Positions 5,675 through 45,111 of a stretch of 64,000 nt of DNA are shown here, piece after piece. The notes below the pieces were generated by a model. That model saw nothing but the letters and a program-made list of their open reading frames with translations, was not told the origin of the DNA and did no database searches. Location of the stretch: contig CM126231.1 in assembly GCA_052327205.1 (NCBI GenBank), positions 26,908,001-26,972,000 of the forward strand, written 5' to 3'. This stretch comes from Somniosus microcephalus (lineage: Eukaryota). Position numbers and translations under genes: made by a program. Every line of letters starts with the position of its first letter. Within the stretch, counting starts at the first letter, position 1.

Positions 5675-6694
5675 GAGTGTAGCTCTGATTCCCCCGCCCC
5701 TCACCATCCCCACCCCCCACCCCGCCCCAAGGAATTTCCTGTTTTTTTTGAGAACATTGTCTTTCTTTATGGGCGCCCTGGTGAAAGTGAAGGATTGTAC
5801 ATCACTGATGCTCTTTGCATGCTCTGTTTCACTTTGTTCTGTCTGTGAATCCGAAGATCTGATAAGAATCTAGTGAGCGCTGGCGTGCGAACTTTGTATT
5901 CTTTCGGTTCGCTGAACCCTTCGTTTTGATTGATATTGTTCTGCGCTTGTTAAACATTTCACAAGCAAGGAACCCCTGACAGACTGCACCAAATATTAGT
6001 GTTTTTGAAAAAAGTGAATCACTTCTTTGTGTGAAGTCCATGACTTCATCCTCACTGCTCAACCAGCACAATGTCCCATGGCGCCTCACAGGAGCGTTAT
6101 CAAAGAAAATTAGACGCTGAGCCCCAGAGAGATATTAGAACAGGTGACCAAAAGCTTGGTCAACAAGGTAGGTTTTAAGGAGCATCTTAAAGGAGGAGTG
6201 AGAGGTGAAGAGGTTTAGGGAGGGAATTCCAGAGCTAAGGGCCACAGCGGCTGAATGCATGACCGCCAATGGTGGAGCGATTAAATTCGGAGATGTGCTG
6301 GAGGCCAGAATTGCGGGAGTACAGATATCTCGGAGGGCTGTAGGGCTGGAGGAGGTGACAGAGGTAGGGAGGGGCGGGAGGCTGAGAATTTTAAAGTCGA
6401 GGCGTTGCTTAACCGGGAGCCAGTGTAGGTCAGCGAGCCCTGGGGTGATGGGTGAACGGGACTTGGTGCGAGTTGGGATTTGGGCGGCAGAGTTTTGGAT
6501 GAGCTCAAGTTTATGGAGGCCGGCCAGGAGAGCATTGGAATAGTCAAGTCTAGAGGCAACAGCCTGGATGGGCTGAGGCAGGGGGCAGAGTCCAGTGATG
6601 TTACGGAGATGGAAATAGGCGGTCGTAGTGATGGCGCCAATGTCTGGTCAGAAGCTCATCTCAGGGTCAAATACGACACCAAGGTTGCGAACAG
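5675..6694 (+). repeat. ~1-kb direct duplication, second copy at 13361-14364
   Basis: Both begin GAGTGTAGCTCTGATT, share ~400 bp of non-LINE sequence and an L2 fragment with the same junctions. Confidence 0.85.
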
Positions 6695-7300: not shown

Positions 7301-7391
7301 CATGACCATGAGAGTTTAGGACCTAGTTATCAGTCAGTCTTTTTGCAGAGTAGGTCCCGCTGCTCTGAAGAATTATCGGGCCTTGTGTTGC

Positions 7392-7749
7392 TTAGGCCAA
7401 GGAATCCAGCCCGTCTACAGCACTTGCCCAAACGTTTCCTTCAACTCATCGGAAATCTCTCTGGGTAGAGGAGATCTGGCTGTGACGACAGCCCAGCCAG
7501 CGCATCACCAGACTGGTTCCATTCTACAGGCAGAGGAAACACGGCAGAGAGAGACTAAAATATAAAAGAGCTGGTGGATAGTTTAGTCTCTCTCTGCCGT
7601 GTTTCCTCTACCAGTAGAATGGAACCAGTCTGGTGATGCGCTGGCTGGGCTGTTGTCACAGCCAGATCTCCTCTACCCAGAGAGATTTCCGATGAGTTGA
7701 AGGAAATGTTTGGGCAAGTGCTGTAGACGGGCTGGATTCCTTGGCCTAA
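7392..7749. repeat. near-perfect long inverted repeat / foldback MITE
   Basis: Arms 7392-7563 and 7578-7749 (172 bp each, 5 mismatches by manual count), 14-nt loop; GGCC ends flanked by TA. Confidence 0.92.
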
Positions 7750-9114
7750 TTACAGGCATTGTGTGTTGGGGAAGGAATGGGGAACCATTCCGAAGCAACA
7801 GACAGCGGCTGAATCCTCTTCCTGCAGGTTACTGGGAGCCAGAGCTGTGTAGGTGTGCCCCAATCATTAGATCATTGTAAACCAGATTAGATTCGTGATA
7901 AGAGCTCACCCTAGGGGTGTGGGGTTGGGGTGGGGGTCGGAATACAATGCATTCCTCATCAGGGTCATCGGCATGGCGAATACTTCTAAACTACAGACAA
8001 ACTTCTCACATCTTTAAGTGCTTTGTTTTTTACATTTAAGAGATGTCCGTCTAAAATGAACTTCAGTCGAAATCAAGTAGATTTAGAACAGTGGGTGCGG
8101 CCGCATTCATTGCCACTGTACCTTCTCGGCATCTTGTGCTTTCATTTCAGACCGGCTCCTTAACCCCCTCTGTTTTTCACCTGTCCCATTTTTCTAACGA
8201 TTCCCCTGGACCTTCCAAAGCTGGTAACTGTTCACATGACCTTTGTTTCTTTAATTTCTTCAATGCTGCTTTCCAACATCCAACAATCATTACACGGGTA
8301 TCGCCTCGAACGTTGTAAAACATCCCAAGGCGCTTCACAGGAGCGTCATCAAACAAAACTTGACACCGAGCCAAGGAAGGAGATATTAGGACAGGTGACT
8401 AAATGCTTGGTCAAAGAGGTAGGCTTTAAGCAGCATCTTGGGATGAGAGGGCTGTCCTATGAGGAGAGATTGAGTAGAATGGGCCGATACTCTCTGGAGT
8501 TTAGAAGAATGAGAGGTGATCTCATTGAAACATACAAGATTCTGAGGGGGATTGACAGGGTAGATTCTGAGAGGTTGTTTCCCCCGGCTGGAGAGTCTAG
8601 AACTAGGGGGCATAGTCTCAGGATAAGGGGTCGGCCTTTTAAGACTGAGATGAGGAGGAATTTCTTCACTGAGGGCTGTGACTGCTCTACCCCAGAGGGC
8701 TGTGGATGCTGAGTCTTTGAGTATATTCAAGGCTGAGATAGATTTTTTTTTGGACTCTAGGGAAATTGAGGGATATGGAGATCGGGCAGGAAAGTGGAGT
8801 TGAGGTGGATGATCAGCCATGATCTTATTGAATGGCGGAGCAGGCTCGAGGGGCCGAATGCCCGACTCCTCTTATTCCTTATGTTCTTAAAGGAGGAGAG
8901 AGATGGAGAGGTGATGTTGAGGGAATCCCCTTTAAACTGCCACTTGAACACAGCAGAATTATCCTCCCAAAAAACCTCCTGATACCAGAACACAGCACTC
9001 GAGCAGAACCTGAACGAGTTAGTGAAATGCAGGTGGAGCTTTTGCTGTCCCGCATTCTTAAAACCAGCAGAAAGCTTGCTCGGAAAGGTCACCGCAGCAA
9101 ATGAAGATAGAAAG

Positions 9115-10519: not shown

Positions 10520-11736
10520 ATCTCTGCCCATCTGCCCATCGTCTCTGAATGGAAAACATAATCGGTTTTCAAAATAACTTGAATGTAGAGAAACGTTGTT
10601 CAAAGTCGAGGAAGAACTTGAGGAAATGGCTGGAAGTGAAAGAAGCCACGAGCTGAACTTAAATTGAAGAACAGTCTCTTCACACTTGGACTGACTGTGT
10701 TATGGGATGGTCTGTCGCTTAGTGCAGTCAATACTGATGGATAAATGGGAACTGGGAGAATTCTGGACACAGCAGGTAGAAGGACAGAAACCTTGTTAGT
10801 GAAACACATGTTGGTGTGTGAGAATTCAAGAAAATATTAAGTAACTATGTGTTAAATGATTTACAGAGTGGGTGGTTTGTGTCTAATGGTTGCAGCTCTG
10901 GGTGCGGTATTTTAAATGAGGGCCTTCCACTCCAGATACTGTTTCATCCTACTTTTATTTTTGTGTCTCTCTCTCTTTGCATTAGAACATTACAAACCTA
11001 CCAAAACCGTCCACAACAGCCAATCATCTGGACAGTAAGTGCACTCGAAAACAGTCTCGATTGTAAAATGTCAGGGATTATATGGCGGCCCCAGTTATCG
11101 TTTGTTTCCGTGGTGACACTGTGTGCTGCCCCCCCCCCCCCCCGCCAATGGGTGGACTTGGATCGGACCGCAGAAACCGCGTCCGTTACAAATTGCTCCA
11201 ATTAATTCATCTGTTCGAGCAAGATAGCCGCGGAAGGTTACCCGGCTCTGGCACCTCCTTTGAGGCAGCTGACTTGATGTGGGGACAAGCGGAGGTCAGC
11301 GTCCTCTTCCCGTGGCTGCAGAACTTGGCTGGTGAGAGGCACGCTCAATTTCTGTGCCACAGCATCCCTTCACTCTGGCAGGGGGCACCTCCAGGCACGC
11401 CGTGATCTATTTTTTTTTCCTCGGTGCTAGGGGGGTCCCTGCTGCTTTGGGTTAGCAGCGTTCTCCAAACCGCTCTTGATTTTGTTCACCGCGCACAGGT
11501 GGCCGAAAGCTGGCGGACCTCTGCACCTGGTGTTGGTCACGGGGTTGTGAGTTGCAATGAAGTGGTCGATTTTACCAGTACGCAGCGATTTGAGGAGAGA
11601 ATTCGAACGAACCGACAATCGCTGTCTTACCCAATGGTCCACTGGGAAAACCAGTCCATCTCTGATTTACACCTAATTAATGATATACCTGTTACTAGTC
11701 TAATCTGCTGCTTTTCACCTCTCCTACATTTAATAA

Positions 11737-11824
11737 ATGGACCTGACACAAGACCAGAGGCTCCCGCCTGTTCACAGTCACACAAATGAACCACTGGCAG
11801 CGAGACAAAGTGGAATCGTTCCAG
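11737..11824 (+). CDS. small single-pass membrane protein, coding exon 1
   Basis: ATG(G) preceded by in-frame TAA TAA; MDLTQDQRLPPVHSHTNEPLAARQSGIVP(G); strong CAG|GTAAGA donor, phase 1. The start codon is less certain than the donor. Confidence 0.6.
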
Positions 11825-13739
11825 GTAAGAAATGTGTGATCTTGTCTTATCCATAAATATTTTGGGGCTCTAGGGGAATCGAGGGATATGGAGAACGGGC
11901 GGGGAAAGTGGAGTTTTGAGGTTGAAGATCAGCCATGATCTTATTGAATGGCGGAGCAGGCTCGAAGGACCTTCTGGCCTACTCCTGCTCCTTATTCTTG
12001 TGTTCCTTCAAAGCAATGCTACTCATTGGGCTTGGGATCATGATATGCTTATATTGCAGGTACCTGATGGTTTTGCTGAGGCAGAGTTTACATTGCAGGT
12101 ATATCAGCCCTTAATGGGATATTAATAGTCATGCTAGATCCCTTCGGTCTACTGCAATGCTAGAATTAATTTCATCCATTGAATCAAACACCATGACAGT
12201 GAAGGCTTCCATATTGAACATGGGGGAACTCAATCTTATCATAGAATCATAGACTAGTACAACACAGAAGGAGGCCATTCGGCCCATCGAGTCTGTGCCG
12301 GCTCTTTCGAACAGTAATCCAGTCAGTCCCACTCCCCCGCTCTTTCCCCAGATCCCTGCAATATTTTCTCCTTCAAGTATTTATCCAATTCCCTTTTGAA
12401 GGCTACTATTGAATCTGTATCCACCGCCCTATCAGGCCGTGCATTCCAAATTCTAACCACTCGTGTAAAATTTCTCCTCCTGTCGCCTCGGGTTCTTTTG
12501 CCAATCACCTTAAATCTGAGCCCTCAGGTTATCGACCCTTCGGCCATTGGAAACAGTTTTTTCTTTATTTACTCTATCTAAACCCTCCATGATTTTAATC
12601 TGTGGCTCAAATCGTAAAACTATTTGGTTATGTGTCGATGTGTGGTAAGATTTCTTCTGCTATTTGCGGAGAAATTGTAAATACGTGATTTTAAAGAATG
12701 ATTTTACAATGTTTCTACTACAACAACAACAACTTGTATTTCTATAGCACCTTTAACATTGTAAAACGTCCCAAGGTGCTTCACAGGATCGTTATCAGAC
12801 AAAAATTGACACCGAGCCACATAAGGAGACATTAGGAGAGGAAAGAGGTAGGTTCTAAGGAGCGTCTTGAAGGGAGAAAGAGAAGCGGAGAGGTTTAGGG
12901 AGGGAATTCCGGAGCTTATGGTCCAGGCAGCTGAAGGCACGGCCGCCAATGGTGGAGGGATTAAAATTGGGGATGCGCAAGTGGCCAGAATTGGAGGAGT
13001 GTAGAGATCTGAGGGTTGTAGGGCTGGAGGAGGTTAAAGAGATAATAGGGAGAGGCGAGGCCATGGAGGGATTTGAAAACGAGGATGAGAATTTTGAAAT
13101 CGAGGCTTTGCCGGACCGGGACCCAGTGTAGGTCAGTGAGCACAGGGGTGATGGGCGAAAGGGGATTGGAGTTAGGACAAGGCCTGTAGAGTTTTGGATG
13201 AGCTCATGTTTATGGAGGGTGAAAGATGGGAGGCCAGGAGTGCGTTGGAATAGTCAAGTCTAGAGGTAACCAAGGCATGGATGAGGGTTTCAGCAGCAGA
13301 TGAGCTGAGGTAGGGGTGGAGTCGGACGATGTTACGGAGGTGGAAATAGGTGGTCTTGGTGAGTGTAGCTCTGATTTTCCCGCCCCTCACCACCCCAAGG
13401 AATTTCCTGTTTCTTTTGAGAACATTGTCTTTCTTTTTGGGCTCCTTGGTGAAAGTGAAGGATTGTGCATCACTGATGCTCTTTGCACGCTCTGTTTCAC
13501 TTTGTTCTGTCTGTGAATCTGAAGATCTGATAAGAATCTAGTGAGCGCTGGCGTGTGAACTTTGTATTCTTTCGGTTCGCTGAACCCTTTGTTTTGATCG
13601 ATATTGTTCTGCGCTTGTTAAACATTTCACAAGCGAGGAACCCCTGACAGACTGCACCAAATATTAGTGTTTTTGAAAAAGTGAATCACTTCTTTGTGTG
13701 AAGTCCATGACTTCCTCTTCACTGCTTAACCAGCACAAT

Positions 13740-15450
13740 GTCCCATGGCGCCTCACAGGGGCGTTATCAAAGAAAATTAGACGCTGAGCCCCATAGAGAT
13801 ATTGGAGCAGGTGACCAAAAGCTTGGTCAACAAGGTAGGTTTTAGGGAGCATCTTAAAGGAGGAGAGAGAGGTGAAGAGGTTTAGGGAGGGAATTCCAGA
13901 GCTAAGGGCTACAGCGGCTGAATGCATGGCTGCCAATGGTGGAGCGATTAAATTCAGAGATGTGCAAGAGGCCAGGATTGCAGGAGTACAGATATCTCGG
14001 AGGGTTGTAGGGCTGGAGGAGGTGACGGAGATAGGGAAGGGCGGGAGGCTGAGAATTTTAAAATCGAGGCGTTGCTTAACCGGGAGCCAATGTAGGTCAG
14101 CGAGCACTGGGGTGATGGGTGAACGGGACTTGGTGCGTGTTGGGATATGGGCGGCAGAGTTTTGGATGTGCTCAGGTTTATGGAGGCTCGCCAGGAGCGC
14201 ATTGGAATAGTCAAGCCTAGAGGCAACAACAGCCTGGATGAGCTGAGGCAGGGGGCAGAGTCCAGTGATGTTACGGAGATGGAAATAGGCGGTCTTAGTG
14301 ATGGCACCAGTGTGTGGTCAGAAGCTCATCTCAGGGTCAAATACGACACCAAGGTTGCGAACAGTCTGGTTCAGCCTCAGACAGTTGCCAGGGAGAGGGA
14401 CGGAGTTTGTGGCAGGGACCGAAGACAATGGCTTCGGTCTTCCCAGTATTTAGTTGGAGGAAATTTCTGCTCATCCGGTACTGGAAGTCGGACAAGCAGT
14501 CTGACAATTTAGAGACAGTGGAGGGTTTGACAGAGGAGTAATAATGAGGTAGAGCTGGGGGGTCATCAGCGTACATGTGGAAACTGACGCTGTGTTTTCA
14601 GATGATGTCGATGAGAAATAGAAGGGGGCCAAGGATAGATCCTTGGGGGACACTAGAGGTAATGGAGCCGGAAGAGAATCCATTGCCGCCGATTCGCTGG
14701 CTGAGATTAGATAGATAAGAATTGAACCAGGCAACTGCAGTCCCACCCAGCTGGATGACAGTGGAGAGGCGTTGGAGGAGGATGGTGTGGTTAACTGTGT
14801 CACAGGCTGCAGACTGGTCGAGAAGGATGAGGAGTGTTAATTTACCATGGTCACAGTCACATAGGATGTCAGTTGTGACTCTGACGAGAGCTGTTTTGGT
14901 TCTGTGGCAGGGGCGGAAACCTGATTGGAGGGATTCAGACACGGAGTTCCGGGAAAGATGGGCACGGATTCGGGAGATAACAGATGAGCAGAGTCGGGCA
15001 ATGTTACGGAGGTGGAAATAGGCGGTCTTAGTGATGGAGCGGATATGTGGTCAGAAGTTCATCTCGGGGTCAAATATCACCAAGGTTGCGAACAGTCTGG
15101 TTCAGCCTCAAGACAGTTGCCAGGGAGAAGGACCGAGTCGGTGGATATTAAGGGAATCAAGGGATATGGGGCTAGTGCAGGAAAGTGGAGATGAGGTAGA
15201 AGATCAGCCATGATCTTATTGAATGGTGGAGCAGGCTCAAGGGGCCAAATGGCCGACTCCTGTTCCTAGTTCTTACATTAACAGCACTTTCAAGGACTTT
15301 TGGAGAGGAAAGGGAAGTTGGAGATGGGGCGGTAGTTTGCAAGGACGGAGGGGTCAAGGGTTGGTTATTGGAGGAGAGGGGTGATGACGGCAGATTTGAA
15401 GGAGAGGGGGACAGTACCTGAGGAGAGCGAACCGTTAACAACGTCAGCTA
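13740..15450 (-). mobile_element. L2 LINE fragments (also ~6075-6695 and ~12720-13355)
   Basis: [57 protein letters not shown]. Confidence 0.88.
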
Positions 15451-15594
15451 ACAGCACACAGAGGAAACACTCTTTCGCGTCTAATCCACAGGCTTTGTGA
15501 CTGAAACGGTAATGAGCTCGTGAGTTTAAAAATACCCACTGTACATTGATTGGTTGACTGGCGTTAAAATGAAATTTTGCAAACTACTTTCCAG

Positions 15595-15679
15595 GTATTG
15601 TAGCAGCAACGATATTTATTGTCCTCCTGCTGGGATTATACACCATTCTGTGGAAATGCATGAGTTTCCAGGCGAAAAG
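15595..15679 (+). CDS. small single-pass membrane protein, transmembrane exon (85 bp)
   Basis: CTACTTTCCAG acceptor; (G)IVAATIFIVLLLGLYTILWKCMSFQAK(R); AAG|GTAAGA donor; phase 1 to 2; hydrophobic helix followed by WKC. Confidence 0.75.
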
Positions 15680-16357
15680 GTAAGAAGGGTGTCAACAGTT
15701 TGATGTGTTTGTCACTGCACGCAGTACAGTACTGACCTCCGTACACATACAGCAGACCAGCTGCAGAGCCAGCATCCTTCAATGCTCTCCACAATATACT
15801 TGAATTTATATTTTACAGCCAATAATTTTTGTATTAAGAACATAAGAACATCAGAAATAGGAGCAGGAGTCGGCCACACGGCCCCTCGAGCCTGCTCCGC
15901 CATTCAATAAGATCATGGCTGATCTTTGACCTCAACTCCACTTTCCCGCTCGATCCCCATATCCCTCGATTCCCCATGAGTTCAAAAATCTATCGATCAC
16001 AGCCTTGAATATACTCAACGACTCAGCATTCGCAGCCCTCTGGGGCAGAGAATTCCAAAGATTCACAACCCTCTGAGTGAAGAAATTCCTCCTCGTCTCA
16101 GTCTTAAATGGCCGACCCCTTATCCTGAGACTATGGCCCCTAGTTCTAGACTCTCCAGCCAGGGGACACAACCTCTCCGCCTCTACCCTGTCAATCCCCC
16201 TCAGAATCTTGTGTTTCAATTAGATCACCTCTCATTCTTCTAAACTCCGGAGAGTATCGGCCCATTCTACTCAATCTCTTCTCATAGGACAGCCCTCTCA
16301 TCCCAGGAATCAATCTAATATTGAAAGTTATCATAGCTCTGCATTTTAAGAAACTGT

Positions 16358-17178
16358 GGGAGTGATTTTGCCAATGGGGGCGTGTTGGAGGCGGGGCTGC
16401 TGCTTGTCGGGTTTTAGCCCCGCCTCCATCAACGTCTGGCCAACCCATGCTAGTTTCCCTTGATTGACCTTGTTAAGCCCACCCAGCAGGCTTAGCAGGC
16501 CAATTAAGGGAAAGCCGGTTACTGGTGATGTCAGCGAGTGACGTTTCATCTGTCAAGAGCTTTTGACAGATGAATTGTCATCGTTTGAGAGTTCTGTGAA
16601 GCAGTCAAACACTGATGATCTGTCTTCTAACTTGAGACCTGGGACACAGGCTTACTTAGAGATCTCTCCTGAGCAGAAAGCAGAAGGCTGATGCATTTGA
16701 GAATGTAGCGGCCACTCTGCTTTCTCTGCCGGTGAGATGAGGGACTCCCGAGACCTGAAGGGTTGAAGCCTGGAGGAAGAAGCAAAGGTAAGTAAAGCTT
16801 TTAAAACCCTTAAGACTCACCTCACACACTTACCTCTGCACACATGCACCCATCACTCACCTGCACACCGGACATCTCGGCCCCTCCGACCCCCGCAGAC
16901 CCACGGCTCGCCTCACTGACCCTGGCGAGGTTCGGAGCCGTCAGGAAGCCCACACTTTAGGTGGCAAAATAGGGATTATCCAAAAAACTGCCTGTTCACT
17001 ACCTGTGAACAGGCAGTTAATTGGCACTAATCCTCTTCCTGCCTTGAGGAGGCAGCTCGCAGCGCGGGTCGGGTACCCGCCTCCTGGGAAGGTGGCACGG
17101 AGACGGGATGGGTACCCGCTCCCAGATTCTGCCATTTTCCCGGCAGTCCCGCCTCCCCAGGGCTGGGAAAATTGCCCC
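16358..17178. mobile_element. more diverged copy of the same Harbinger-like family (a partial copy also at ~23351-23708)
   Basis: Shares TTGATTGACCTTGTTAAGCC, GCAGGCCAATTAAGGG and the internal TTTCATCTGTCAA palindrome; GGG...ATTTT and AAAATTGCCCC ends. Confidence 0.7.
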
Positions 17179-17608
17179 CCGCCCCCCTGTGAGTGCAATA
17201 TCTAACTCTGCTCAGCAACACCTCCTCCCAACATTCCCTCCTGCGGTGGAAATCTGTAATTCAAACAGATCCTAATGTGAGCAACAATTGGGGCTCCTTT
17301 TCACACTCGGCGGGTCGAGCGTGCCTTTGTGCAATAGTGCGAAACAGGCGATGGCGAGCCGGCAGCTCGTTTTACATCTCCTTCCCCCCCCCCCCTTTTA
17401 CTTTCCATCGAAGTCACTCGGGAGAGATGGAAAACGCGACTGTCGACTCGCTATCGCCCGGTGTACACTACCGCATAAAGCCCCGGCCTGCCCCAGGGGC
17501 TCGGCTACGAGCCGTCACTTCTAGCTGATAATTTATTACCGTTGATCCCTTCCAAAAATGATTTTTTCCCCCCCCTCTCTCTCATTTCCTCCCCATCCCC
17601 ATCTGCAG

Positions 17609-17669
17609 GTACAAAGGGAACAGAAGGTCAAGGCAGAAGATTCACCATCCAGCCGCAGTCTCCTGCTGA
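17609..17669 (+). CDS. small single-pass membrane protein, terminal coding exon
   Basis: Long polypyrimidine tract plus TGCAG acceptor; in phase 2 it reads (R)YKGNRRSRQKIHHPAAVSC then TGA; basic cytoplasmic tail. Confidence 0.65.
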
Positions 17670-18089
17670 CGGAAGGTTTAGCAGCATCCTGTACATCAGC
17701 CTGGACGGCCTAGCTTATTCCAGATGCTTCGAAGAGAACACACCTCTTTCGCTTGGGGAATTCACAGTGCTGGCTTGTCCGCACGCTAATCACGGCAGCA
17801 TTTCAAACGGTGCCGTGTGCGGGTTGCATCTTACAAGCCTCTCCTAATTCTAGCTCACTTAAGAACGGCTCCTGCCCTTTATTAGTCCCCAGCTGTCGCC
17901 CCCACAATCCTCCATTAGCAGAAGTGGGTATTGGTTAGCGGGAAAGGTGTCTTTCTAGATGCGAGTGGAAACAAAATAGATGGGAGAATGGAACGGCAAA
18001 CGAATTGTAAGTTTTTTCTTTTAGCCCCCCCTGACTTTCTGTACGTACAAGCGCCACTTTTATTGACGATTACGAAAAAGAAAAGTCAA

Positions 18090-18095
18090 ATTAAA
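18090..18095 (+). terminator. candidate poly(A) signal (ATTAAA) for the small membrane protein gene
   Basis: ATTAAA about 420 nt after the TGA, followed by T/GT-rich sequence. Confidence 0.3.
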
Positions 18096-18369
18096 ATACG
18101 AAGGTTGAAAACTGGCTGGATACTGTAGCCTCTTTGCTGTCTCAGCTCTTTCGACTTGGTCTGGATTGTGCTGATGCTCCGGTGTTCCATCAGGATGTGT
18201 CCTGGGGATTGAATCTCTTGTCACCAGCAGGGGGAAAAATGGCTTTTTGGTGTTTTTCCCTCAAATTTGGGCCACGTTTTGCTGATGTGACAGAGTGAAG
18301 AACATTCTTTCCTGCAGCCCCCCCTGAAGACGACTTTGTGTTGATGTCAGCTGTAGAAACATTGGGAAT

Positions 18370-20270
18370 AATAAAAAAAACTCTCCTCATTTCAGTCCAA
18401 AATGGCTGACCCTTTATCCTGAGACTGTGACCCCTGGTTCTAGACTCCCCAGCCGGGGGAAACATCCTCCCTGCATCTACCCTGTCAAGCCCTGAAGAAT
18501 TTTATATGTTGCAATGAGATCACCTCTCATTCTTCTAAACTCTAGGGAAATATAGGGCTCGTCTACTCGATCTCTCCTCGTAGGGCAATCCCCCCATCCC
18601 AGGAATCAGTCGAGTAATCCTTTGTTGCACTCCCTCTAAGACAAGGAGACCAAAACTCTGCACAGTACTCCAGGTGTGGTCTCACCAAGGCCCTACATAA
18701 TTGCAGTAAGACTTCTTTACTCTTGTACTCCAATCCTTTTGTAATAAAGGTCAACATGCCATTTGCTTTCCTAATTGCTTGCTGTACCCGTGTGTTAACG
18801 TTCTGTGATTTGTGTACAAGGACACCCAGGTCCCTCTGAACACCAACATTTCCCAATCTCTCGCCACTTAAAAAATACTTTGCTTTTCTATTTTTCCTAC
18901 CAAAATGGATAACTTCACATTTCTCCACATTATGTTCCATCTGCCATGTTCTTGCTCACTCACTTAACCTATCTATATCCCTTTGCAGCCTCTTTGCATC
19001 CTCCTCACAACTTACTTTCCCACCCAGCTTTGTATCATCAGAAAACTTGGATACATTACACTCAGTCCCCTAATCTAAGTCATTGATATAGATTGTAAAT
19101 AGCTGAGGCCCAAACACTGATCCTTGCGGCACCCCACTAGTTACAGCCTGCCAACCCAAAAATGACCCGTTTACTCCTACTCCCTGTTTCTTGTCCATTG
19201 ATCTTCAATCAATGCTAATATATAAAGGAAAGACTTGCATTTCTATAGTGCCTGGTCACGACCACCAGGCGTCCCAAAGTGCTTTACAGCCAATGAAGTA
19301 CTGTCACTGTTGTAATGTAGGAAACGCGGCAGCCAATTTGCGCACAGCAAGCTCCCACAAACCGCAATATGATAATGACCAGATAATCTGTTTTAGTGAT
19401 GTTGAGGGATAAATATTGGCCAGGCCACCGGGGATAACTCCCCTGCTCCTCTTCGAAAGAGTGCCCTGGGAGAGCAGACAAGACCCCAGTTTAATGTCTC
19501 ATCTGAAAGACAGCACCTCTGACAGTGCAGCACTCCCTCAGTACTGCACTGTCAGCCTGGGTTTTCGTGCTCCAGTCTCTTGGAGTGGGACTATGAACCC
19601 ACAGCTTCTGACTCAGAGGTGAGAGTGCTACCCACAGAGCTACTGGCTGACATTATATATTACCCCCAATCCCATGAGCCCTAATTTTGTGCAATAACCT
19701 CTTGTGTGGCACATTATCGAATGCTTTTTGAAAATCCAAATACACTACATCCACTGGTTCCCCCTTATCTACCCTGCCAGTTACAACCTCAAAAAGCTCC
19801 AACAGATTTGTCAAACACTATTTCCTTTTCATAAATCAGTGTCGACACTGCCCAATCATATTATGATTTTCTAATTGCCCTGTTATCACGTCCTTAATAA
19901 TATCCAGCATTTTCCTGATGACTGATATCAGGCTAACTGGCCGATAGTTCCCTGTTTCCTCTCTCCCTCCTTTCTTGAATAGCGGGGTTACGTTTGCTAC
20001 CTTCCAATCTGCTGGGACCATTCTAGAATCTAGGGAATTCTGGAAGATCAAAACCAATGCATCCACTATCTCTGTAGCCACCTCTTTCAAAACCCTGGGA
20101 GTAGGCCATCAGGTCCAGGGGATTTGTCGGCTTTTAGTCCCATTAATTTCTCCAGTAGTATTTCTTTACTAATACTAATTTCTTTAAGTTCCTCATTCTC
20201 ACTAGACCCTTCGTTCCCCACTATTTCCGAGATGTTTTTTGTGTCTTCTTCCATGAAGACAGATATAAAG
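18370..20270 (-). mobile_element. CR1 LINE ORF2 fragment (frameshifted RT) with nested SINE
   Basis: Peptides [55 protein letters not shown]. Confidence 0.9.
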
Positions 20271-24104: not shown

Positions 24105-24373
24105 TTAAAATGAAGTGACTGTGGGGCCCGTACAGTTCGGGTGAGTTTCTGACGAGGTAGACTCTTTCTCTGAAGAGGTTTTGCTGTTCCCAGGCACTGT
24201 GCGTTCTTCCGACTTGGCCATCCCGTTGCACTGTGCGGTTGACTGGGCTTTCTTATCCTCAGCAGGACCGTCATACCCAAAGTTCTGAAAGAAACTATTG
24301 GAATATATTTTCTCTGGCGGCTGCTCCTTGATCTCTTGCTGCTTCAGCAAGACAGCGATGTTGATGTTTGGTC
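24105..24373 (-). CDS. NPC1L1: NPC1L1 terminal coding exon (cytoplasmic tail)
   Basis: TTTACAG acceptor, then (G)PNINIAVLLKQQEIKEQPPEKIYSNSFFQNFGYDG...TVTSF and TAA; contains a YxNxxF motif. Confidence 0.88.
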
Positions 24374-26476: not shown

Positions 26477-26639
26477 CAAAGTAGCTGAGGAGCACAGGGA
26501 GGAACACGAGGCCGTGGACCAGGCCCATTAACGTGATCACGAGATTAAGACGAAAAAAGAAAATCTGGATGAGCTGAGCTCTAGCGAAATACAAGACAAT
26601 GATTCCAGGAAGGTTGGTCATCGCAACACCTGCAAACAC
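26477..26639 (-). CDS. NPC1L1: NPC1L1 coding exon (163 bp, last transmembrane helices)
   Basis: VFAGVAMTNLPGIIVLYFARAQLIQIFFFRLNLVITLMGLVHGLVFLPVLLSYF(G); CAG/GTGAG. GVAMTNLPG and AQLIQIFFFRLNL are NPC1L1-type rather than NPC1-type. Confidence 0.97.
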
Positions 26640-27699
26640 CTGGGAAAAAACAACACAGCAGCGGAACAGGTTAGTGAGGCTTTACCCTGGGCCGTGGCGA
26701 TGATACCTTCCTCATCAATACAGCGCTTATGGTGGTTTTATATACAACACGGGGCTCAGGCACCATTGGTTACTGATGCTTTTAGCGCATAGGGGACAGC
26801 TGTTTACCTGCTGTCCAAAGCAACACTGCTATATCAACATGGCAGCCTTGGCTCATTACATTACACAGGATATACGGCACAGAAACAGGCCATTCGGCCC
26901 AACCAGTCCATGCCGGTGTTTATGCTCCACTCGAGCCTCCTCCCGTCTTTCCTCATCTAACTCTATCAACATAACCCTCTATTCCCTTCTCCCTCATATG
27001 CTTGTCTAGCCTCCCCTTAAATGCATCGATACTATTCGCTTCAACCACTCCCTGTGGTAGCGAGTTCCACATTCTCACCACTCTCTGGGTAAAGAAGTTT
27101 CTCCTGAATTCCCTATTGGATTTCTTGGTGACTATCTTATATTGATGGCCTCTAGTTATGTTCTTCCCCACAAGTGGAAACATTCTCTCTGTATCCACTC
27201 TCAAAATCTTTCATAATTTTAAAGACCTCTATTAGGTCACCCCCAGCCTTCTTTTTTCAAGAGAAAAGAGACCCAGCCTGTTCATCCTTTCCTGATATGT
27301 ATACCCTCGCATTTCTGGTATCATCCTTGTAAATCTTCTCTGCACCCTCTCCAGTGCCTCTATATTCTTTTTATAATATGGCAACCAGAACTGTACGCAG
27401 TACTCCAAGTGTGATCTAACCAAGGTTCGATGCAGGTTTAGCATAACTTCCCTACTTTTCAATTCTATCAAATCAGTCGCGCTTCTGAGTCAGAAGGTTG
27501 TGGGTTCAAGTCCCACTCCAGGGACTGAAGTGTCAGCCTAGAGTCTGTGCTCAAGTCGACTGCAGGCTGACACTTCAGTGCAGTACTGAGGAAGCGAACA
27601 GGTGTGATCGTGCTGGACTATCTGTTCATTTTACTTTACACTTTGCCCACTTGCCGCCAGCACCCCCCCCACCCGCCATGGCCCACTTGCCGTACATAC

Positions 27700-28418: not shown

Positions 28419-28916
28419 GCATGTTGGTGGCCATTTACCATCAAAGTCAGATGTACTAAGTGAGCAAGTCATGCAAGAAGGCGGCTTACAAAAACCAAAT
28501 CAACAATTGCTGCAGAGTATCGAATCTTGTTGCAACAAAATGAGCTATGCCCACTCCTGCATAAATGCATATTGCAGCCACGTTTGTTGACAGGTTATTA
28601 ATTGCAGAAAAAACAAGTTATTCTCTCATTTCCCGTAAAAAGAGAATTCTTTGGCCCCGGACCTTTCAGCGTCGACACTCTATGCCTCCATACTGATGCC
28701 TGCTTTTTCATTTCTCAAAAAGGTACTTCTTATCATTTAAAGGTTTGCAAATGTAACTAAGCCCTGCTTCAAATCTTAGTTGAACAATTCCAACATTTGC
28801 AGTTGGAACGTGTTGTTGCTCGCCTGAGTGGGAGAAGCCGAGTGGGGTCGCGTTCGGAGACAGCCGCTTTCTTTGCAGCTAAAACCGAACTTTCTGAAAG
28901 AACATCGGATTCTTAC

Positions 28917-29148
28917 CGTAACCAGATTGATGAGAGACACAGCGTTGAAGTCGATGCCCCAGAGCGTCATCACTCCCACCGTGTCCACGACGATCATGAC
29001 AATTGTGATCAGGTTCAGAAAGCCCGACTGGATGTCCATTCCAAGCAGAACACAGCAGACCACAAAGGTTGGGATCAGACACAGCCCAATATTGAAAATC
29101 CCCTCGTTCACTACGGTCAGATACTGTTCATAATAGACATAAGTGATC
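28917..29148 (-). CDS. NPC1L1: NPC1L1 coding exon (232 bp, transmembrane helices)
   Basis: ITYVYYEQYLTVVNEGIFNIGLCLIPTFVVCCVLLGMDIQSGFLNLITIVMIVVDTVGVMTLWGIDFNAVSLINLVT; CAG/GTAAG. Confidence 0.96.
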
Positions 29149-30496
29149 CTGTAATGCAGAGAAAGTAAAACCACCTCAGCAATTCCCTGCAGAACACACA
29201 CACCGCTACTGATTATGGTTCTCCCACTGACTGAAGTGGCCAAGGCATTGCTTAACTGAGGCATACAGACCTGAGGGTGCTCAAAATTAGGAGGGATTTT
29301 GATAGAGTGAATAAGGAGATGCAGTTTCTCGTGGCAGGAGGGTCAGTAACCAGAGGACACAGATTTAAGGTCATAAGAACATCAGACATAGGAGCAGGAG
29401 GAGGTCATTCGCCACCTTGATCCTCCTCCGCCATTTAATAAGATCATGGCTGATCTGATCTTGGCCTCAACTCCACTTCCCTGCCCGCTCCCCATAACCC
29501 TCGACTCCCTTATCGTTCAAAAATCTGTCTATCTCCACCTTAAATATATTCAATGACTCCGCCTCCACAGCTCTCTGGGGAAGAGAATTCCACAGATTCA
29601 CGACCCTCTGAGAAGAAATTCCTCCTCATTTCCGATTTAAAAGGGTTTCCCCTTATCCTGATTCCCCCACGAGGGGAAACATCCTCTCCGCATCTACCCT
29701 GTCGAGCCCCTTCAGAATCTTATATGTTTCAATAAGATCCCCTCTCATTCTTCTAAACTCCAATGAGTGTAGGCCCAACCTGCTCAACCTTTCTTCATAA
29801 GACAACCCCTTCATCTCCGGAATCAGCCTCGTGAACCTTCTCTGAACTGCCTCCAATGCAAGTATATCCTTCCTTAAATAAGGAGACCAAAACTGTACGC
29901 AGTACTCCAGGTGTGGTCTCACCAGTGCCCTGTACAGTTGTAACAGGACTTTCCTACTTTTATACTCCATTCCCTTTGCAATAATTGACAAAAGAAGTGA
30001 GGGGTGTAGAGAGGGATTCTAGAGTAGGCGGGCGATGGTTTGCTCACACATGAACGATGTCTCCTCGGTTAAGGTCACCAGAGAGAACTGTAGTCAATTC
30101 TTTAAGAGAAGAGGGAAAAGCAGAGAATAAAAATAAAGGCAATGTTTATAATGTGTGTGAATACGCTGTTTGAAATTGATGATCTGGTAATATTTATAAT
30201 TCGAGCACTGGCGCTCTGCATAATAGGTCAGGAATCCTCTCGCGCAATACACAGATCATTAAAGGTGGGGATGAAGGTAAAACAAGCCATGGAACATACA
30301 AATGGGATTCTGGGTTTTATATATGGAGGCACTGAATATAAAAGCACATTTTTTTTTTGCAAAATATTGTTTAAGGCACAGTTGAAGTATTGCATGCAGT
30401 CCTGGCCATCAGGTTGTAGGCGGGCTAATGGAGGCATGGCAGGGGGCAGCAAAGATTCACGGACATGATACCAAAAGGGAGATTATTATAGTTATA

Positions 30497-38689: not shown

Positions 38690-40072
38690 TCATAGAATCG
38701 TAGATTAGAATCATCGAATGGATACAGCACAGAAGGAGGCCATTCGGCAAGAGCACTTCAGCTATTTCCACTCCCCCGCCCTTTCCCCGTAGCCCGGCAA
38801 AAAACATTTTCAGGTACTTATCCAACTCCCTTTTGAAAGCCGTGATTGAATCTGCCTCCACCACCCTTTCAGGCAGTACATTCCAGATCCTAACCACTCG
38901 CTGCGTAAAAAAATGTTTTCCCTCATGTCGCCTTTGGTTCTTCTGCCAATCACCTTAAATCTGTGTCCTCTGGTTCTCGACCCTTCCGCCAATGGGAACA
39001 GTTTCTCTCTATCTACTCTGTCCAGACCCCTCATGATTTTGAACACCTCGATCAAATCTCCTCTCAACCTTCACTGCTCTAAGGAGAACCACCGCAGCTT
39101 CTCAGTCTATCCACGCAACTGAAGTCTCTCATCCCTGGAATCATTCTCGTAAATCTTTTCTGCACCCTCTCTCAGGCCTTCACATCCTTCCTAAAGTGCA
39201 GTGCCCAGAATTGGACACAATACTCTAGTTGAGGCCGAACCAGTGTTTTATACAGGTTCATCATAATTTCCATGCTTTTGTACTCTGTACCTCTATTCAT
39301 GAAGCCCAGGATCCCGTAAGCTTTTTTTAACTGCTTTCTCAACCTGCCCTGCCACCATCAACGATTTGTGCACACATACCCCAAGGTCTCTCTGTTCATG
39401 CACCCCCTTTAGGATTGTACCCTTTAGTTTATATTTCCTCTCTTCATTCTTTCTACCAAAATGTATCACTTTGCACTTTTCTGCGTTAAATTTCATCTGC
39501 CACGTGTCCGCCTATTCCACCACCTGTCTATGTCCTCTTGAAGTCTATCACTATCCTCCTCACCGTTCACTATACTTCCAAGTTTTGTGTCATCTGCAAA
39601 TTTTGAAATTGTGCCCTGTACACCCAAGTCCAAGTCATTAATATATATCAAGAAAAGCAGTGGTCCTAGTACCGACCCATGGGGAACACCACTGTATACC
39701 ATCCTCCAGTCCAAAAAACAACCGTTCACCACTGCTCTCTGTTTCCTGTCACTTAGCCAATTTCGTATCCATGCTGCCACTGTCCCTTTCATTCCACGGG
39801 CTTCAATTTTGCTGGCAAGCCTATTATGTGGCACTTTGTCAAACGCCTTTTGGAAATCCATATACACCACATCAACCACATTGCCCTCATCAACCCTCTC
39901 TGTTACCTCATCAAAAAACTCGATCAAATTGGTTAAACATGATTTGCCTTTAACAAATCTGTGCTGGCTTTCCTTAATTAATCCACACTTGACCAAGTGA
40001 CTGTTAATTTTGTCCCGGATTATTGTTTCTAAAAGTTTCCCCACTACCGAGGTTAAACTGACCGGCCTGTAG
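38690..40072 (-). mobile_element. CR1 LINE 3' fragment (RT core)
   Basis: YMDFQKAFDKVPH, SGVPHGSVLGPLLFLIYINDL, KFADDTK; ends in (ATTCT/ATGATTCT)n tail. Confidence 0.92.
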
Positions 40073-40323
40073 TTTTTTTAAAATTTTTTTTTTAAATTCA
40101 TTGATGGGATGTGGGCGTCACTGGCTGGCTAGGCCTGCATTCAGTGCCCATCCCTAATTGCCCTTGAGAAGATGGTGGTGAGCCACCTTCTTGAACCGCT
40201 GCAGTCCATATGGTGTAGGTACACCCACAATGCTGTTAGGAAGGGAGTTCCAGGATTTTGGCCCAGCGACAGTGAAGGAACGGCGATACAGGTCCAAGTC
40301 AGGATGGTGTGTGACTTGCAGGG

Positions 40324-40504: not shown

Positions 40505-41151
40505 CTGGCGACGAGCAGATACGAACTTACCTACAGTCTGCACCACCTCCTGGGATCCATTCCTGCAGCGAAGTGAGCAGAGGTCGAGGCCAGAAGGAAG
40601 AAAGAAGCAGTAGAAATGGGTGTTGACCATGGGCATCCGCCCCTGTGTTAGCGGAGTTGAAGATTGCTGGAGAAGCTGTCGAAAGCGGGGCCTGATTCCT
40701 GTCGACGGTGCTTCAGCTAATCGGGCTGGTGGCAGGTAGTACACTGATCCTTCCTGGGCTGCGGCGTTCGCGAACTCAAGCGGGTGGCTTGCAACGGGGC
40801 CGAGCAGCGTTGTTGGGAAGAGGAGAGAGAGAGGGTGGAGCACACAGGGCACGGCCGGTGCTACAAAGCCGGGCTGCGTATAGACCCGAGAAGAGGGAGG
40901 CAAGAGTCCCATAGGGTTGTTCCACGACGGGAAAATAATAAAAAAAGAAATATTAAACGCGCAAGAAACCGCGAGGAGCTGCAGGTTGCAACGGAAACCG
41001 CGGAAAGCAACGCTAGCAACAGCGGGGAAGAAGGCAAAGCGCGGGAGGCGCCATCTTAATCAGCGGGGAAGAAGGCAAAGCGCGGGAGTTGCCATTTTGT
41101 TAAATCGGGGAAGAAGGCAAAGCGCGGGAGGCGCCATTTTAGATTTTCAAG

Positions 41152-44100
41152 ATGCCGAAGACTGGCTGTATCACTGCCTTTGATAATACAATAGAGGACT
41201 GGACCACGTATGTGGAAAGAGTCGAGGTATATTGCGAGGCAAACGAAATAGCCGATGAGAAAAAGGCATCGGTATTGCTAAACTTAATGGGCGCTAGAAC
41301 GTACGGCCTATTGCGGGACCTGATTACTCCAGCCAAACCGAAGGCGAAGAGTTTTAACGAAATTGTTGCTGTCCTACAGGAACACCTAAACCCTGCACCG
41401 CTGTTGATAGCAGAAAGATTTAATTTCCACAGGAGAACTCAGCATAAAGATGAGAGCAATGCTGAGTACCTTACGGAACTACGCAAGCTATCAAAGCACT
41501 GCCAGTTTGGAGCAGGACTGGCAGATACCCTACGGGACAAATTTGTCTGTGGACTCCTGAGTGAAGGAACACAGAAGAAGTTACTCTCAGAGAAAGAGCT
41601 GACGCTAGATAAGGCTTTCAGCGTGGCAGTACCGTACGAAGCAGCAGCCAGGGGAGCTGCGGAAATTCAACAAAAGCCACAGGAATACGGCACCCACGAA
41701 ATGACACGGGGATTTGCAAAATGTTATCACTGCGGCAGAACTAACCATGACCAGAAGGACTGTTGGTCCAAAGACAAAATATGCAGGCAATGCGGAAAGA
41801 TGGGACACATTGCACGAGTTTGCAGGTCTGGGAAGAAGACCAGTGACAACAAAAAGGCTACTAAGGAACCGTACAAGAAAGTACAAAAGATGACGGACAG
41901 CAGTTCCGAAGACCAGATGAGCGATAGTGAATCCGGGAACAGGAGACTAAGCTGTCTCAAACTTCACAATGTAATCGCAAAAGAGGATCACCGAACCATT
42001 TGGGCCACCCTCACGATAGCAGGGTCCCAAGTTAAAATGGAATTGGATACAGGATCAGCGCTAACTGTCATGAATCGACGAGACTACGAGCGGCTATTCT
42101 CACACATACCCTTGAGAGAGACATCCATCGTCTTGACGACGTATACGGGGCAAAAAGTGTACCCCAGAGGAAAAATAAGGGTGCCTGTCGAATACAACGG
42201 CAAGAAAATATGGAAATTGTATCTCTACATACTGCAAAATGGTGGACCACCATTATTGGGACGTGAATGGATCAGGAAGATAAGCTTAGATTGGCACTCC
42301 ATTCATGCAATGACGGTGGACGGTAAAAAAGATGACGACGTCACTCCTGGACGATTGTCAACAATCTTAGCTAACGCCAAAGAGGTATTTCAACAAGAAC
42401 TGGGCACTCTTAAAGGCGTAACCGCCTCGATAAAAATAGAAGAGAATGCAATTCCCAAGTTTTTCAAAGCAAGACCGGTACCATATGCAATTCGCCCAGC
42501 CGTCGAGGCAGAGCTGGAGAATCTGGAGAAGGCGGGCGTGTTGTCTAAGGTCGACTGGAGCGAGTGGGCGACACCCATCATTCCTGTCATGAAGAAAACA
42601 TTAAGCAATAAGTCTGAGGAGCCAAGGAAGGTTCGCATCTGTGGGGATTTCAAGGTGACGGTGAACCCAGTCCTTCACACAGTACAATATCCTCTTCCAA
42701 GGATAGAAGACATCTTCGCCTCACTGTCTGAAGGGAAGCGTTTTACAAAAATTGACCTAGCACAAGCATATTTGCAGATGGAGGTTGAAGACTCCTCTAG
42801 GAAGTATCTCACGATAAACACTCACAAAGGTCTTTACCAGTATCATCGATTGGTATTCGGAGTAGCATTGGCTCCGGCGATATGGCAAAGAGCGATGGAA
42901 CAAGTCCTGCAAGGGATTCCGGGGACTCAGTGTTACTTGGACGACATCCTTGTGACAGGTGAAGATGACAGTGAACACCTTAACAACCTAGAACAGGTGC
43001 TCACTAGACTACGGGAACATGGGCTACGAGCCAACCGCCCCAAGTGCGAGTTTTTTAAGAAACAGATATCGTATTGTGGCCACGTGATTGATGAAGAGGG
43101 GTTACACAAGTCCCCTGACAAAATTGAAGCGGTTGTTAAGGCCCCAGCGCCTGAAAATGTGTCGCAACTGAGGTCATTCCTCGGATTGGTGAATTACTAC
43201 CATAAGTTTTTGCCGAATTTGTCGACAATTCTGCACCTACTGAACGCCCTGCTATGAACGGGAGTAGCATGGAAATGGAGCAATGATTGTAAGCGGGCCT
43301 TTCAGAAGAGTAATGACTTAATCACTTCAAGAGAAGTATTGGCTCACTACAACCCAGCACTGCCGATCAGACTGGCGTGTGATGCGTCTCCCTACGGCAT
43401 TGGGGCGGTACTGTCACATAAATTCCTTGATGGTTTAGAGAGGCCGATAGCTTTTGTGTCACGCTCGTTAACTTCTGCCGAGCGTAACAACGCCCAGATT
43501 GACAGAGAGGCCCTCAGCCTAGTGTGGGGGGTGAAGAAGTTCAATCACTATCTGCACGGTCAAAAATTTACTCTACTAACCGATCATCAACCTCTTGTCT
43601 CCATTTTCAACCCTCAGAAGGGCGTACCGATAATGACAGCACAACGGCTGCAGAGGTGGTCCCTTTTCCTAGGGGCACACCAATATGACATCGAGTACAA
43701 AGGAACTAAACAGCATGGGAATGCTGATGGATTGTCACGCCTACCGTTGCCGACGGTGGAAGAAGAAGACCTTGCAGTGGATCCAATGGAGTTATTCCAC
43801 TTGACCATAGTCGAATGTCTCCCTGCGACGAATGCAAACATAGAAAAGGAAACCCGGAATGACCCGACACTATCACGGGTCTATGATTTAATGGTGAAGG
43901 GATGGCCAGCACATGGCGAACCACTGCTGCCAGCATTCTCGCCGAGAAGAGAACAGCTGTCAGTGTGCAGAGGAACCTTGATGTGTGGGTCCAGAGTAGT
44001 AATTCCACCTAAGTTGACGGATAGAGTGCTCAATGAGCTTCATGAGGGTCATCTGGGTGGGGTAAAAATGAAGAACTTAGCCAGAGCATTTGTGTGGTGG

Positions 44101-45111
44101 CCGGGAATCGATAGAGAAATCGAAGAGATGACCAAGAGCTGTGCAGGATGCCAGAAGGTCCAAAACGCCCCACCACAAGCTCCTGTGCATCCATGGGAGT
44201 GGCCCTCATCTCCATGGCAAAGGGTGCACATTGATTTTGCTGGTCCCTTCATGGACTCGATGTTTTTAATTGCGGTGGATGCACATTCAAAGTGGCCAGA
44301 GGTAATAAAAATGTCCTCAACCACCACGGAAAAAACTATCACAGTTTTACGAACCATATTCGCCAGGAATGGGCTGCCTGAACAGATTTGCTCTGACAAT
44401 GGACCACAGTTTGTGTCTGAAGATTTCCGGAGGTTCTTAAAGAACAATGGTGTTAAGCATTACACATCTGCCCCATATCATCCAGCTACTAATGGATTGG
44501 CCGAGAGGTTTGTTCAAACATTCAAGAAGGCTATCAAGGCAATGTGTAATGAAGATATACCCCTACAACACAAGGTGGACAACGTCTTGTTTGCCTACCG
44601 GAATGCGACACATGCAGTTACCAACCAAACTCCAGCCATGATGTTCTTCAATCGAAGACTACGATGCCGCTTGGATTTGGTTAAGCCAAACGTCCGAAGA
44701 GATGTGGAGAACAGGCAGTTTCAGAATATGAATGAAAGGCCGACCAGGAGTTTTAAGATAGGTCAACCAGTTTTGGCCCGGGACTACCGCACTGAGAAAT
44801 GGCAGCCAGGAACGATTTGTACACGACAAGGACCTCTCATGTATACCGTGGACGTTGGAGAGAGCACTGTAAGACGCCATGCTGACCAGATTCTAGAGTC
44901 ACTGGAAAACGTCAACTCCACACCACGATCTGATACACCTGGCAATGAAATCGACGTACCAATTGCAGCTACCGCAGAATCGGTGATATTGGAAGCAGAT
45001 GAACCAAACAAAGACATTGATCCCGACTCAACCTTGCCAGAAGAACCTGATACCCCAAAGAGGCGTTATCCAGACAGAATCAGGAAGCCTCCTCAAAGAC
45101 TGAACTTATAA
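41152..45111 (+). pseudogene. Gypsy gag-pol polyprotein interrupted by one in-frame TGA (43255-43257)
   Basis: ORFs 41152-43257 and 43339-45111 are in the same frame. Two CCHC knuckles, protease LDTGS, RT YLDD, RNase H (CDAS), integrase HHCC and DFAGP/SDNG/AERF; order PR-RT-RH-IN identifies Gypsy. Confidence 0.95.

Follow-up and report, generated by a model that had tools for sequence, protein, structure and literature searches.

The stretch of DNA analysed here, called the window below, comprises 64,000 nucleotides of the forward strand of contig CM126231.1 of Somniosus microcephalus (positions 26,908,001-26,972,000; assembly GCA_052327205.1). On its plus strand lie four coding exons of a small membrane protein gene which, on sequence comparison, is the shark orthologue of zebrafish sb:cb288, and on the minus strand, tail-to-tail with it, lies NPC1L1. 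An earlier analysis of the letters alone (the sequence-only reading) had proposed a hidden gene of three exons for a membrane protein of 77 residues, and had suggested a link to NPC1L1 and gut lipid uptake. The gene is real, its exons being homologous to known ones and in the same order, and the splice signals, coordinates, phases and open frame of the three segments are as that reading gave them. The count of three exons and the length of 77 residues do not hold, as an exon upstream had been missed.

Exon structure and gene model

The missed exon (10986-11034, 49 nucleotides, entered in phase 0 and left in phase 1) begins with an N-glycosylation sequon and contains no in-frame ATG. It has a TAG acceptor behind a tract of 81% pyrimidines and a GTAAGT donor, and is matched by residues 23-40 of the orthologue from Heptranchias (tblastn, E 0.011). 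The following coding exon (11753-11824, 72 nucleotides, phase 1 to 1) encodes the polar outer segment and the start of a GxxxGxxxA motif, and matches the Heptranchias protein at 76% (tblastn, E 6e-8). The transmembrane helix and a juxtamembrane W-K-C-M are encoded by exon 15595-15679 (85 nucleotides, phase 1 to 2; CAG acceptor, GTAAGA donor; E 4e-12 in the same comparison), while the last coding exon (17609-17669, 61 nucleotides; CAG acceptor, pyrimidine tract of 90%; E 3e-6) provides the basic cytoplasmic tail, which ends in a Cys resembling a PDZ ligand and is closed by a TGA stop. The Heptranchias protein (XP_067857735.1) thus matches the window in order at 10986-11039, 11752-11826, 15594-15689 and 17586-17666. 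Downstream of the stop, a non-repeat stretch on the same strand (17670-18375) with ATTAAA at 18090 and AATAAA at 18370 is the likely 3' untranslated region.

In the sequence-only reading the first segment began at an ATG and comprised 88 nucleotides (11737-11824, donor GTAAGA). Joined to 15595-15679 and 17609-17669 in phases 1 and 2, it gives an open frame of 234 nucleotides, that is 77 codons and a stop, and none of the three segments overlaps the within-window repeats, which make up 46% of the window. When both strands of the whole window were scanned for exon-like pieces of 60-130 nucleotides encoding a hydrophobic stretch of 19 residues, only exon 15595-15679 and one exon of NPC1L1 (as three overlapping rows) were obtained; the three-exon arrangement exceeds chance. 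Repeats are found around these exons: copies of a 1-kb repeat, 93% identical, lie upstream of 10986 (5675-6694) and in the intron between 11824 and 15595 (13361-14364), and a minus-strand fragment of reverse transcriptase of the long interspersed nuclear element (LINE) type lies in an intron of the gene at 14601-15050. A second such fragment, also on the minus strand, is found farther along the window at 39496-40077.

Joining base 11034 to base 11753 produces a four-exon frame of 88 residues, 68 of which are identical in Heptranchias with no gaps (62/88 in Heterodontus and 63/88 in Carcharodon). The alignment score against Heptranchias is 348 for this model and 289 for the 77-residue model. 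It likewise does better than the 77-residue model with Heterodontus, Carcharodon and Scyliorhinus as references, the two tie against Rhincodon and zebrafish, and the 77-residue model scores higher against two rays, the coelacanth and Xenopus. No AG occurs between 11699 and 11750, and the first AG past the pyrimidine tract is that at 11751-11752; the exon probably starts at 11753. Because splicing at 11752/11753 reproduces the Heptranchias protein ungapped and with the higher score, the ATG at 11737 and the codons next to it (11737-11752, plus strand) are likely intronic in the main transcript. Residues like those of 11737-11752 are coding in rays and the coelacanth and are not coding in four sharks, and the segment may be what is left of a once longer exon, or else the beginning of a short isoform. 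The acceptor seems to have slid among lineages, with rays and the coelacanth keeping more residues, galeomorph sharks and Heterodontus one more, and Heptranchias and Somniosus microcephalus the fewest.

A start-codon segment is common to five cartilaginous fishes, with leave-one-out scores of 41.8-62.2. The best score of this segment in the window is only 16.75, and for this reason the start exon probably lies upstream of base 1. With such an exon, the full product would probably have about 110 residues.

Two other accounts of these exons have to be considered. That the main product in Somniosus microcephalus is after all the 77-residue form is quite unlikely in our view. Its ATG lies in frame, the AAG acceptor used at 11753 follows a tract of 58% pyrimidine and is weak, the rays, coelacanth and Xenopus align slightly better with it, Rhincodon has a Met at the same offset as the ATG at 11737, and the window yielded no start-codon exon for the long form. 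Against this, exon 10986-11034 is homologous, open in frame and flanked by strong splice sites, and its ungapped join gives the Heptranchias protein; moreover, the 77-residue form contains no sequon, in contrast to 76 of 78 homologues, and the upstream start segment is common to five cartilaginous fishes. It is extremely unlikely that the exons came together by chance or belong to a dead pseudogene. The absence of a start exon from the window could be taken in that sense, but four exons are intact, ordered, in phase and homologous, the branch length is short and ordinary (0.12), and the zebrafish gene is expressed and has one intron chain shared by the RefSeq and Ensembl models listed in the supplement of PMC7486121 (chr8:40,502,765-40,526,398).

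Relatives and taxonomic spread

The gene is not hidden, as RefSeq annotates orthologues under the label "uncharacterized protein sb:cb288" in at least five sharks and in many fishes. What was already known is the annotated gene, and what is new is the orthologue in Somniosus microcephalus with its corrected exon structure. A resemblance to uncharacterised small membrane proteins of teleosts, which the sequence-only reading had tentatively pointed to, proved to be correct, these being sb:cb288 itself (in zebrafish NCBI gene 321191, ENSDARG00000117312 / CABZ01044746.1, XP_002663231.1). Membership in this family is indicated by the ungapped identity to Heptranchias (77% over 88 residues), by shared motifs and by the position in the tree; npc1l1 may be a shared neighbour in zebrafish.

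With the 36-residue genomic frame of the helix exon as query against 1.84 billion representative sequences, 13 relatives were obtained (best E 9e-9). Ten were looked up, of which six are sb:cb288 (Mobula, Heptranchias, Latimeria, Scyliorhinus, Rhincodon and Anoplopoma) and the remaining four are labelled "uncharacterized protein" (two rays, one frog). Three further searches raised the total to 91 distinct relatives, among them the zebrafish protein and Xenopus tropicalis LOC100496891. All 85 that could be named belong to cartilaginous fishes, ray-finned fishes, the coelacanth or amphibians, and the six unnamed ones are most similar to members from frogs, newts or teleosts. Hits from amniotes, lungfish or lamprey did not appear, in searches that were incomplete: one word-index search missed known members (coelacanth, Carcharodon), another scored 8000 candidates only, frog members were barely above the threshold in the search of the 1.84 billion representatives, and the taxa of a 71-member chordate cluster in the Atlas did not enter the comparison. 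This spread is no more than suggestive of a loss of sb:cb288 in amniotes. A similar spread has been published for genes that fishes and amphibians retain and warm-blooded vertebrates lack; in the passage concerned, nine such genes are given by Ensembl id and description, none of them as a small single-pass protein, and c-answer, being LOC100135223, differs from the Xenopus member LOC100496891.

In a tree of 31 rows the Somniosus protein is sister to that of Heptranchias (support 99/92) within a cartilaginous-fish clade of eight rows (99/95). An Atlas search with the Heptranchias protein led to a cluster of sb:cb288 (88 members) and to a chordate one without a name (71 members) at 0.96, with structure rows below the threshold, while the 36-residue helix piece gave no match from 0.9 upwards. 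No Pfam family matched the helix exon or 11737-11823. When 31 members were compared with Pfam at E up to 1, 12 scattered weak families appeared, each in at most three members (best E 0.014; beyond about E 0.1, matches are mostly removed by the filters of HMMER), and a PDB search at E up to 10 returned only malectin (E 1.5). The sb:cb288 family has no Pfam model.

One relative, a cichlid protein of 104 residues (KAL3975553.1), carries the name OSTM1, the beta subunit of ClC-7. This identity was rejected: no such Pfam match was found, and KAL3975553.1 scores 515 against tilapia sb:cb288 (self-score 534), and because the two are near-identical we regard the label as an annotation error. A literature search, which took in few subscription papers, found no functional study of sb:cb288, only one mention in a main-text gene list and rows in supplementary tables, and no relevant paper on the synteny of npc1l1 was among those listed. 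The gene was also not found in the supplements of PMC8517238, PMC5574553, PMC6363392 and PMC9314398, blanks that are weak as the names used there may not match. As a locus this is an ordinary one, with annotated orthologues in many fishes. Its value lies in the family, which is unstudied, has no Pfam profile, has kept one face of the helix constant between sharks and frogs, and did not turn up in amniotes in the incomplete searches described.

Protein anatomy across homologues

For counts across the family, 78 of 93 proteins were aligned, the other 15 being truncated, mis-spliced or same-species duplicate isoforms; the rows are mutually related and teleost-heavy, and the counts are not independent. 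Sequons occur in the N-terminal part of 76 of the 78 (mean 2.41, against 0.78 in shuffles) and in the tail of seven; a crude hydropathy rule detected a signal-like start in none, and downstream of the helix the net charge averages +6.9. Because of these three features a type III topology is predicted, and the product is likely a single-pass membrane protein with a glycosylated N-terminus. This supports, by prediction, the topology, juxtamembrane Cys and basic tail of the sequence-only reading, the Cys being present in 77/78. An AlphaFold2 model of the Carcharodon orthologue consists of a single confident helix (residues 61-90) with disorder elsewhere (predicted template modelling score 0.31).

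Conservation is concentrated in the helix. Mean column identity is 17%, yet there are 10 invariant columns, all within or at the helix, and the GxxxGxxxA motif is present in 75/78. The invariant face is formed by G, G, A, F, I, L, L, Y, L, W and M, all on one side, with a periodicity of conservation that peaks near 95 degrees, a value reached in none of 5000 permutations. A charged residue within the helix, an immunoreceptor tyrosine-based activation motif (ITAM), FxYD and a juxtamembrane CxxC were each found in 0/78, YxxPhi in two, and any tail tyrosine in seven.

In 72 of the 78 homologues the protein ends in one of A, C, V, I, L and F (18.5 expected), and 52 C-termini fit class patterns of PDZ ligands, where 6.3 would be expected (30 of class 1, 20 of class 2 and 2 of class 3). 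The C-terminal end has been remodelled among lineages yet stayed hydrophobic. A C-terminal Cys is seen in sharks, coelacanth, bichir, sturgeon, eels, zebrafish, caecilian and newt. In most percomorphs the terminus reads S/T-x-V, resembling a class 1 PDZ ligand, and in frogs it is hydrophobic-x-V.

Several known families of small membrane proteins resemble this one in part. KCNE proteins are of similar size, have a glycosylated N-terminus without a signal peptide and carry a basic tail. The likeness to sb:cb288 is one of anatomy and concerns how the proteins might work; membership was rejected, as KCNE turned up neither in Pfam for 31 members (E up to 1) nor in PDB (E up to 10). MAP17/PDZK1IP1 and SMIM24 are likewise small and cross the membrane once; their helix packs against a transporter, a Cys lies next to the membrane and the C-terminus binds PDZ domains, and MAP17 carries a signal peptide. 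Of the sb:cb288 ends, 52/78 fit PDZ-ligand patterns and might bind such a domain, but there is no signal-like start in any of the 78 and no Pfam or PDB match, so that membership was rejected here as well. In glycophorin C and SMAGP-like proteins a type III topology is combined with a glycosylated outer segment, no signal peptide, a small-xxx-small helix motif and a PDZ-type end; topology and glycosylated N-terminus are predicted likewise for sb:cb288, without a sequence match in Pfam or PDB. FXYD membership fails on the missing FxYD motif, and FXYD is not among the 12 weak Pfam families. TMIE (PF16038) was suggested by an Atlas feature score of 0.88, which is a lead only, and had no Pfam match in the 31 members.

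The NPC1L1 neighbour, expression and a proposed role

Three exons on the minus strand are assigned to NPC1L1. The likely last coding exon (24105-24373) is an open frame ending at 24105, with a CAG acceptor in phase 1, as read from the sequence. Exon 26477-26648, with its donor at 26477 and an approximate upstream boundary, encodes the last transmembrane helices (phmmer against PDB, NPC1L1 residues 1209-1271, E 4e-25), and exon 28914-29156, both boundaries of which are approximate, encodes further ones (residues 1094-1174, E 2e-31). The latter two match NPC1L1 better than NPC1 in PDB. The likely NPC1L1 stop at 24105 is about 6.4 kb from that of sb:cb288, so the tail-to-tail layout of the sequence-only reading is borne out. 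In zebrafish the transcripts of sb:cb288 and npc1l1 are consecutive gffcompare rows (51528 and 51529) in the supplement of PMC7486121, which implies that the genes are adjacent there too, if rows follow coordinates.

According to the same supplement, sb:cb288 is enriched in sorted kdrl+ cells (log2 fold change 1.67, adjusted P 0.004) and pdgfrb+ cells (1.64, 0.001), and is equal in Nr2f2+ and Nr2f2- endothelium (0.11, 0.92), while npc1l1 is not enriched in kdrl+ (-0.45, 0.80) or pdgfrb+ cells (0.47, 0.71). In PMC10948150, CABZ01044746 is named among the genes high in the natural killer T (NKT) cluster T5 of zebrafish kidney. So far as these sources go, they point to expression in vascular, mesenchymal and NKT cells that does not follow npc1l1 in sorted cells, and they do not support the link to NPC1L1 and the gut that the sequence-only reading had put forward as a speculation.

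We favour, with about an even chance of being right, a role of the sb:cb288 product as accessory subunit of a larger membrane protein, tied to a PDZ scaffold, the partner probably not being NPC1L1. An accessory role had been suggested before, and the one-sided conservation of the helix fits it. There is a precedent in KCNE, where single-pass proteins act as channel subunits, as described in a preprint (bioRxiv 10.64898/2026.04.28.721385). From what was observed directly, namely the exons, the orthology, a single hydrophobic helix, its one-sided conservation and the motif counts, we infer the steps that follow. Because there is no signal peptide, the helix would act as a reverse signal anchor, so that the N-terminus with its sequons would face outwards and the basic tail the cytoplasm. 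The Cys that follows the helix may be palmitoylated and, together with the basic tail, would hold the protein at the inner leaflet. The invariant face of the helix would bind a partner helix within the bilayer, and the last residues might bind a PDZ domain and so set the surface location of the complex. The presumed site of action would be vascular, mesenchymal and lymphoid cells rather than enterocytes.

Several points weigh against this role or its foundations. A homo-oligomer would be expected to show one-sided conservation equally, and the role is proposed from predicted anatomy. Of the 78 C-termini, 26 fit no PDZ pattern and the class varies among the rest, and the check for a signal peptide relies on hydropathy in a crude way. 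In zebrafish, too, npc1l1 seems to have remained the neighbour of the gene. Zebrafish is the sole source of the expression data; in the supplement of PMC7486121, npc1l1 leans upward in pdgfrb+ cells under the V4.3 annotation (1.17, adjusted P 0.21), its counts in sorted cells are low (about 8-61), and no gut fraction is included. Finally, the start-codon exon was not found in the window, and the splice junctions are predicted from sequence.

The main rival to the accessory-subunit role is self-association through the GxxxGxxxA motif, with the protein acting alone as a glycophorin-like anchor between membrane and cytoskeleton or as a small oligomeric channel. We consider this unlikely. The motif is present in 75/78 and there is a single conserved face; the outer part is disordered and predicted to be glycosylated, the end is PDZ-like, and weak Atlas feature leads point to glycophorin A (0.83) and to small viral membrane proteins (0.92-0.93). 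However, the invariant face spans the whole helix and includes bulky F, Y, W and M, which is more than a glycine zipper, there is no glycophorin match in Pfam at E up to 1, and a helix with no charged residue in any of 78 homologues is poorly suited to a pore. A homodimer prediction for residues 50-100 of the Carcharodon protein, made without an alignment, gave a score of 0.08 and speaks neither for nor against binding.

It is very unlikely that the protein serves NPC1L1 as a dedicated accessory subunit in cholesterol uptake, having stayed adjacent to it and been lost in amniotes. The tail-to-tail position in Somniosus microcephalus, the adjacency implied by the zebrafish rows if these are in coordinate order, and an anatomy compatible with an accessory subunit all favour such a role, but vertebrate genome neighbourhoods are commonly kept without shared function. 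Also, NPC1L1 works in mammals, where the incomplete searches found no sb:cb288 orthologue, and in the zebrafish sources the kdrl+ and pdgfrb+ fractions are enriched for sb:cb288 and not for npc1l1, and sb:cb288 is high in the NKT cluster. That same cluster, together with the short outer part, the juxtamembrane Cys and the basic tail, could indicate a signalling adaptor of fish and amphibian T and NK cells, either of the ITAM type (CD3zeta, DAP12) or of the TRAP type (LAT, PAG). We think this highly improbable and rejected it, as the motif tests failed in the 78 homologues: neither a charged helix residue nor an ITAM nor CxxC was seen, and YxxPhi and tail tyrosines are rare. Enrichment in sorted cells that are not lymphoid, as tabulated for zebrafish, is also at odds with it.

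A bolder form of the accessory-subunit role is that sb:cb288 founds an undescribed family of such subunits, with helix face and PDZ-type tail kept from shark to frog and lost in the amniote ancestor. In aquatic vertebrates, sb:cb288 would then modulate a channel, transporter or receptor of vascular and NKT-type cells. This is tentative, and in our opinion more probably wrong than right; its most daring version, in which the partner would be the neighbouring NPC1L1, is very unlikely.

Some further elements lie elsewhere in the window. A Gypsy-like retrotransposon on the plus strand (41143-45111) retains gag-pol in a single frame with one stop (43255-43257) and encodes a zinc knuckle, protease and reverse transcriptase, followed by RNase H and integrase. 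At about 7390-7750 there is a long inverted duplication, the halves of which are reverse complements around about 7560, and about 800-1170 is taken up by a G-rich array in which a unit of about 30 bases recurs in tandem.

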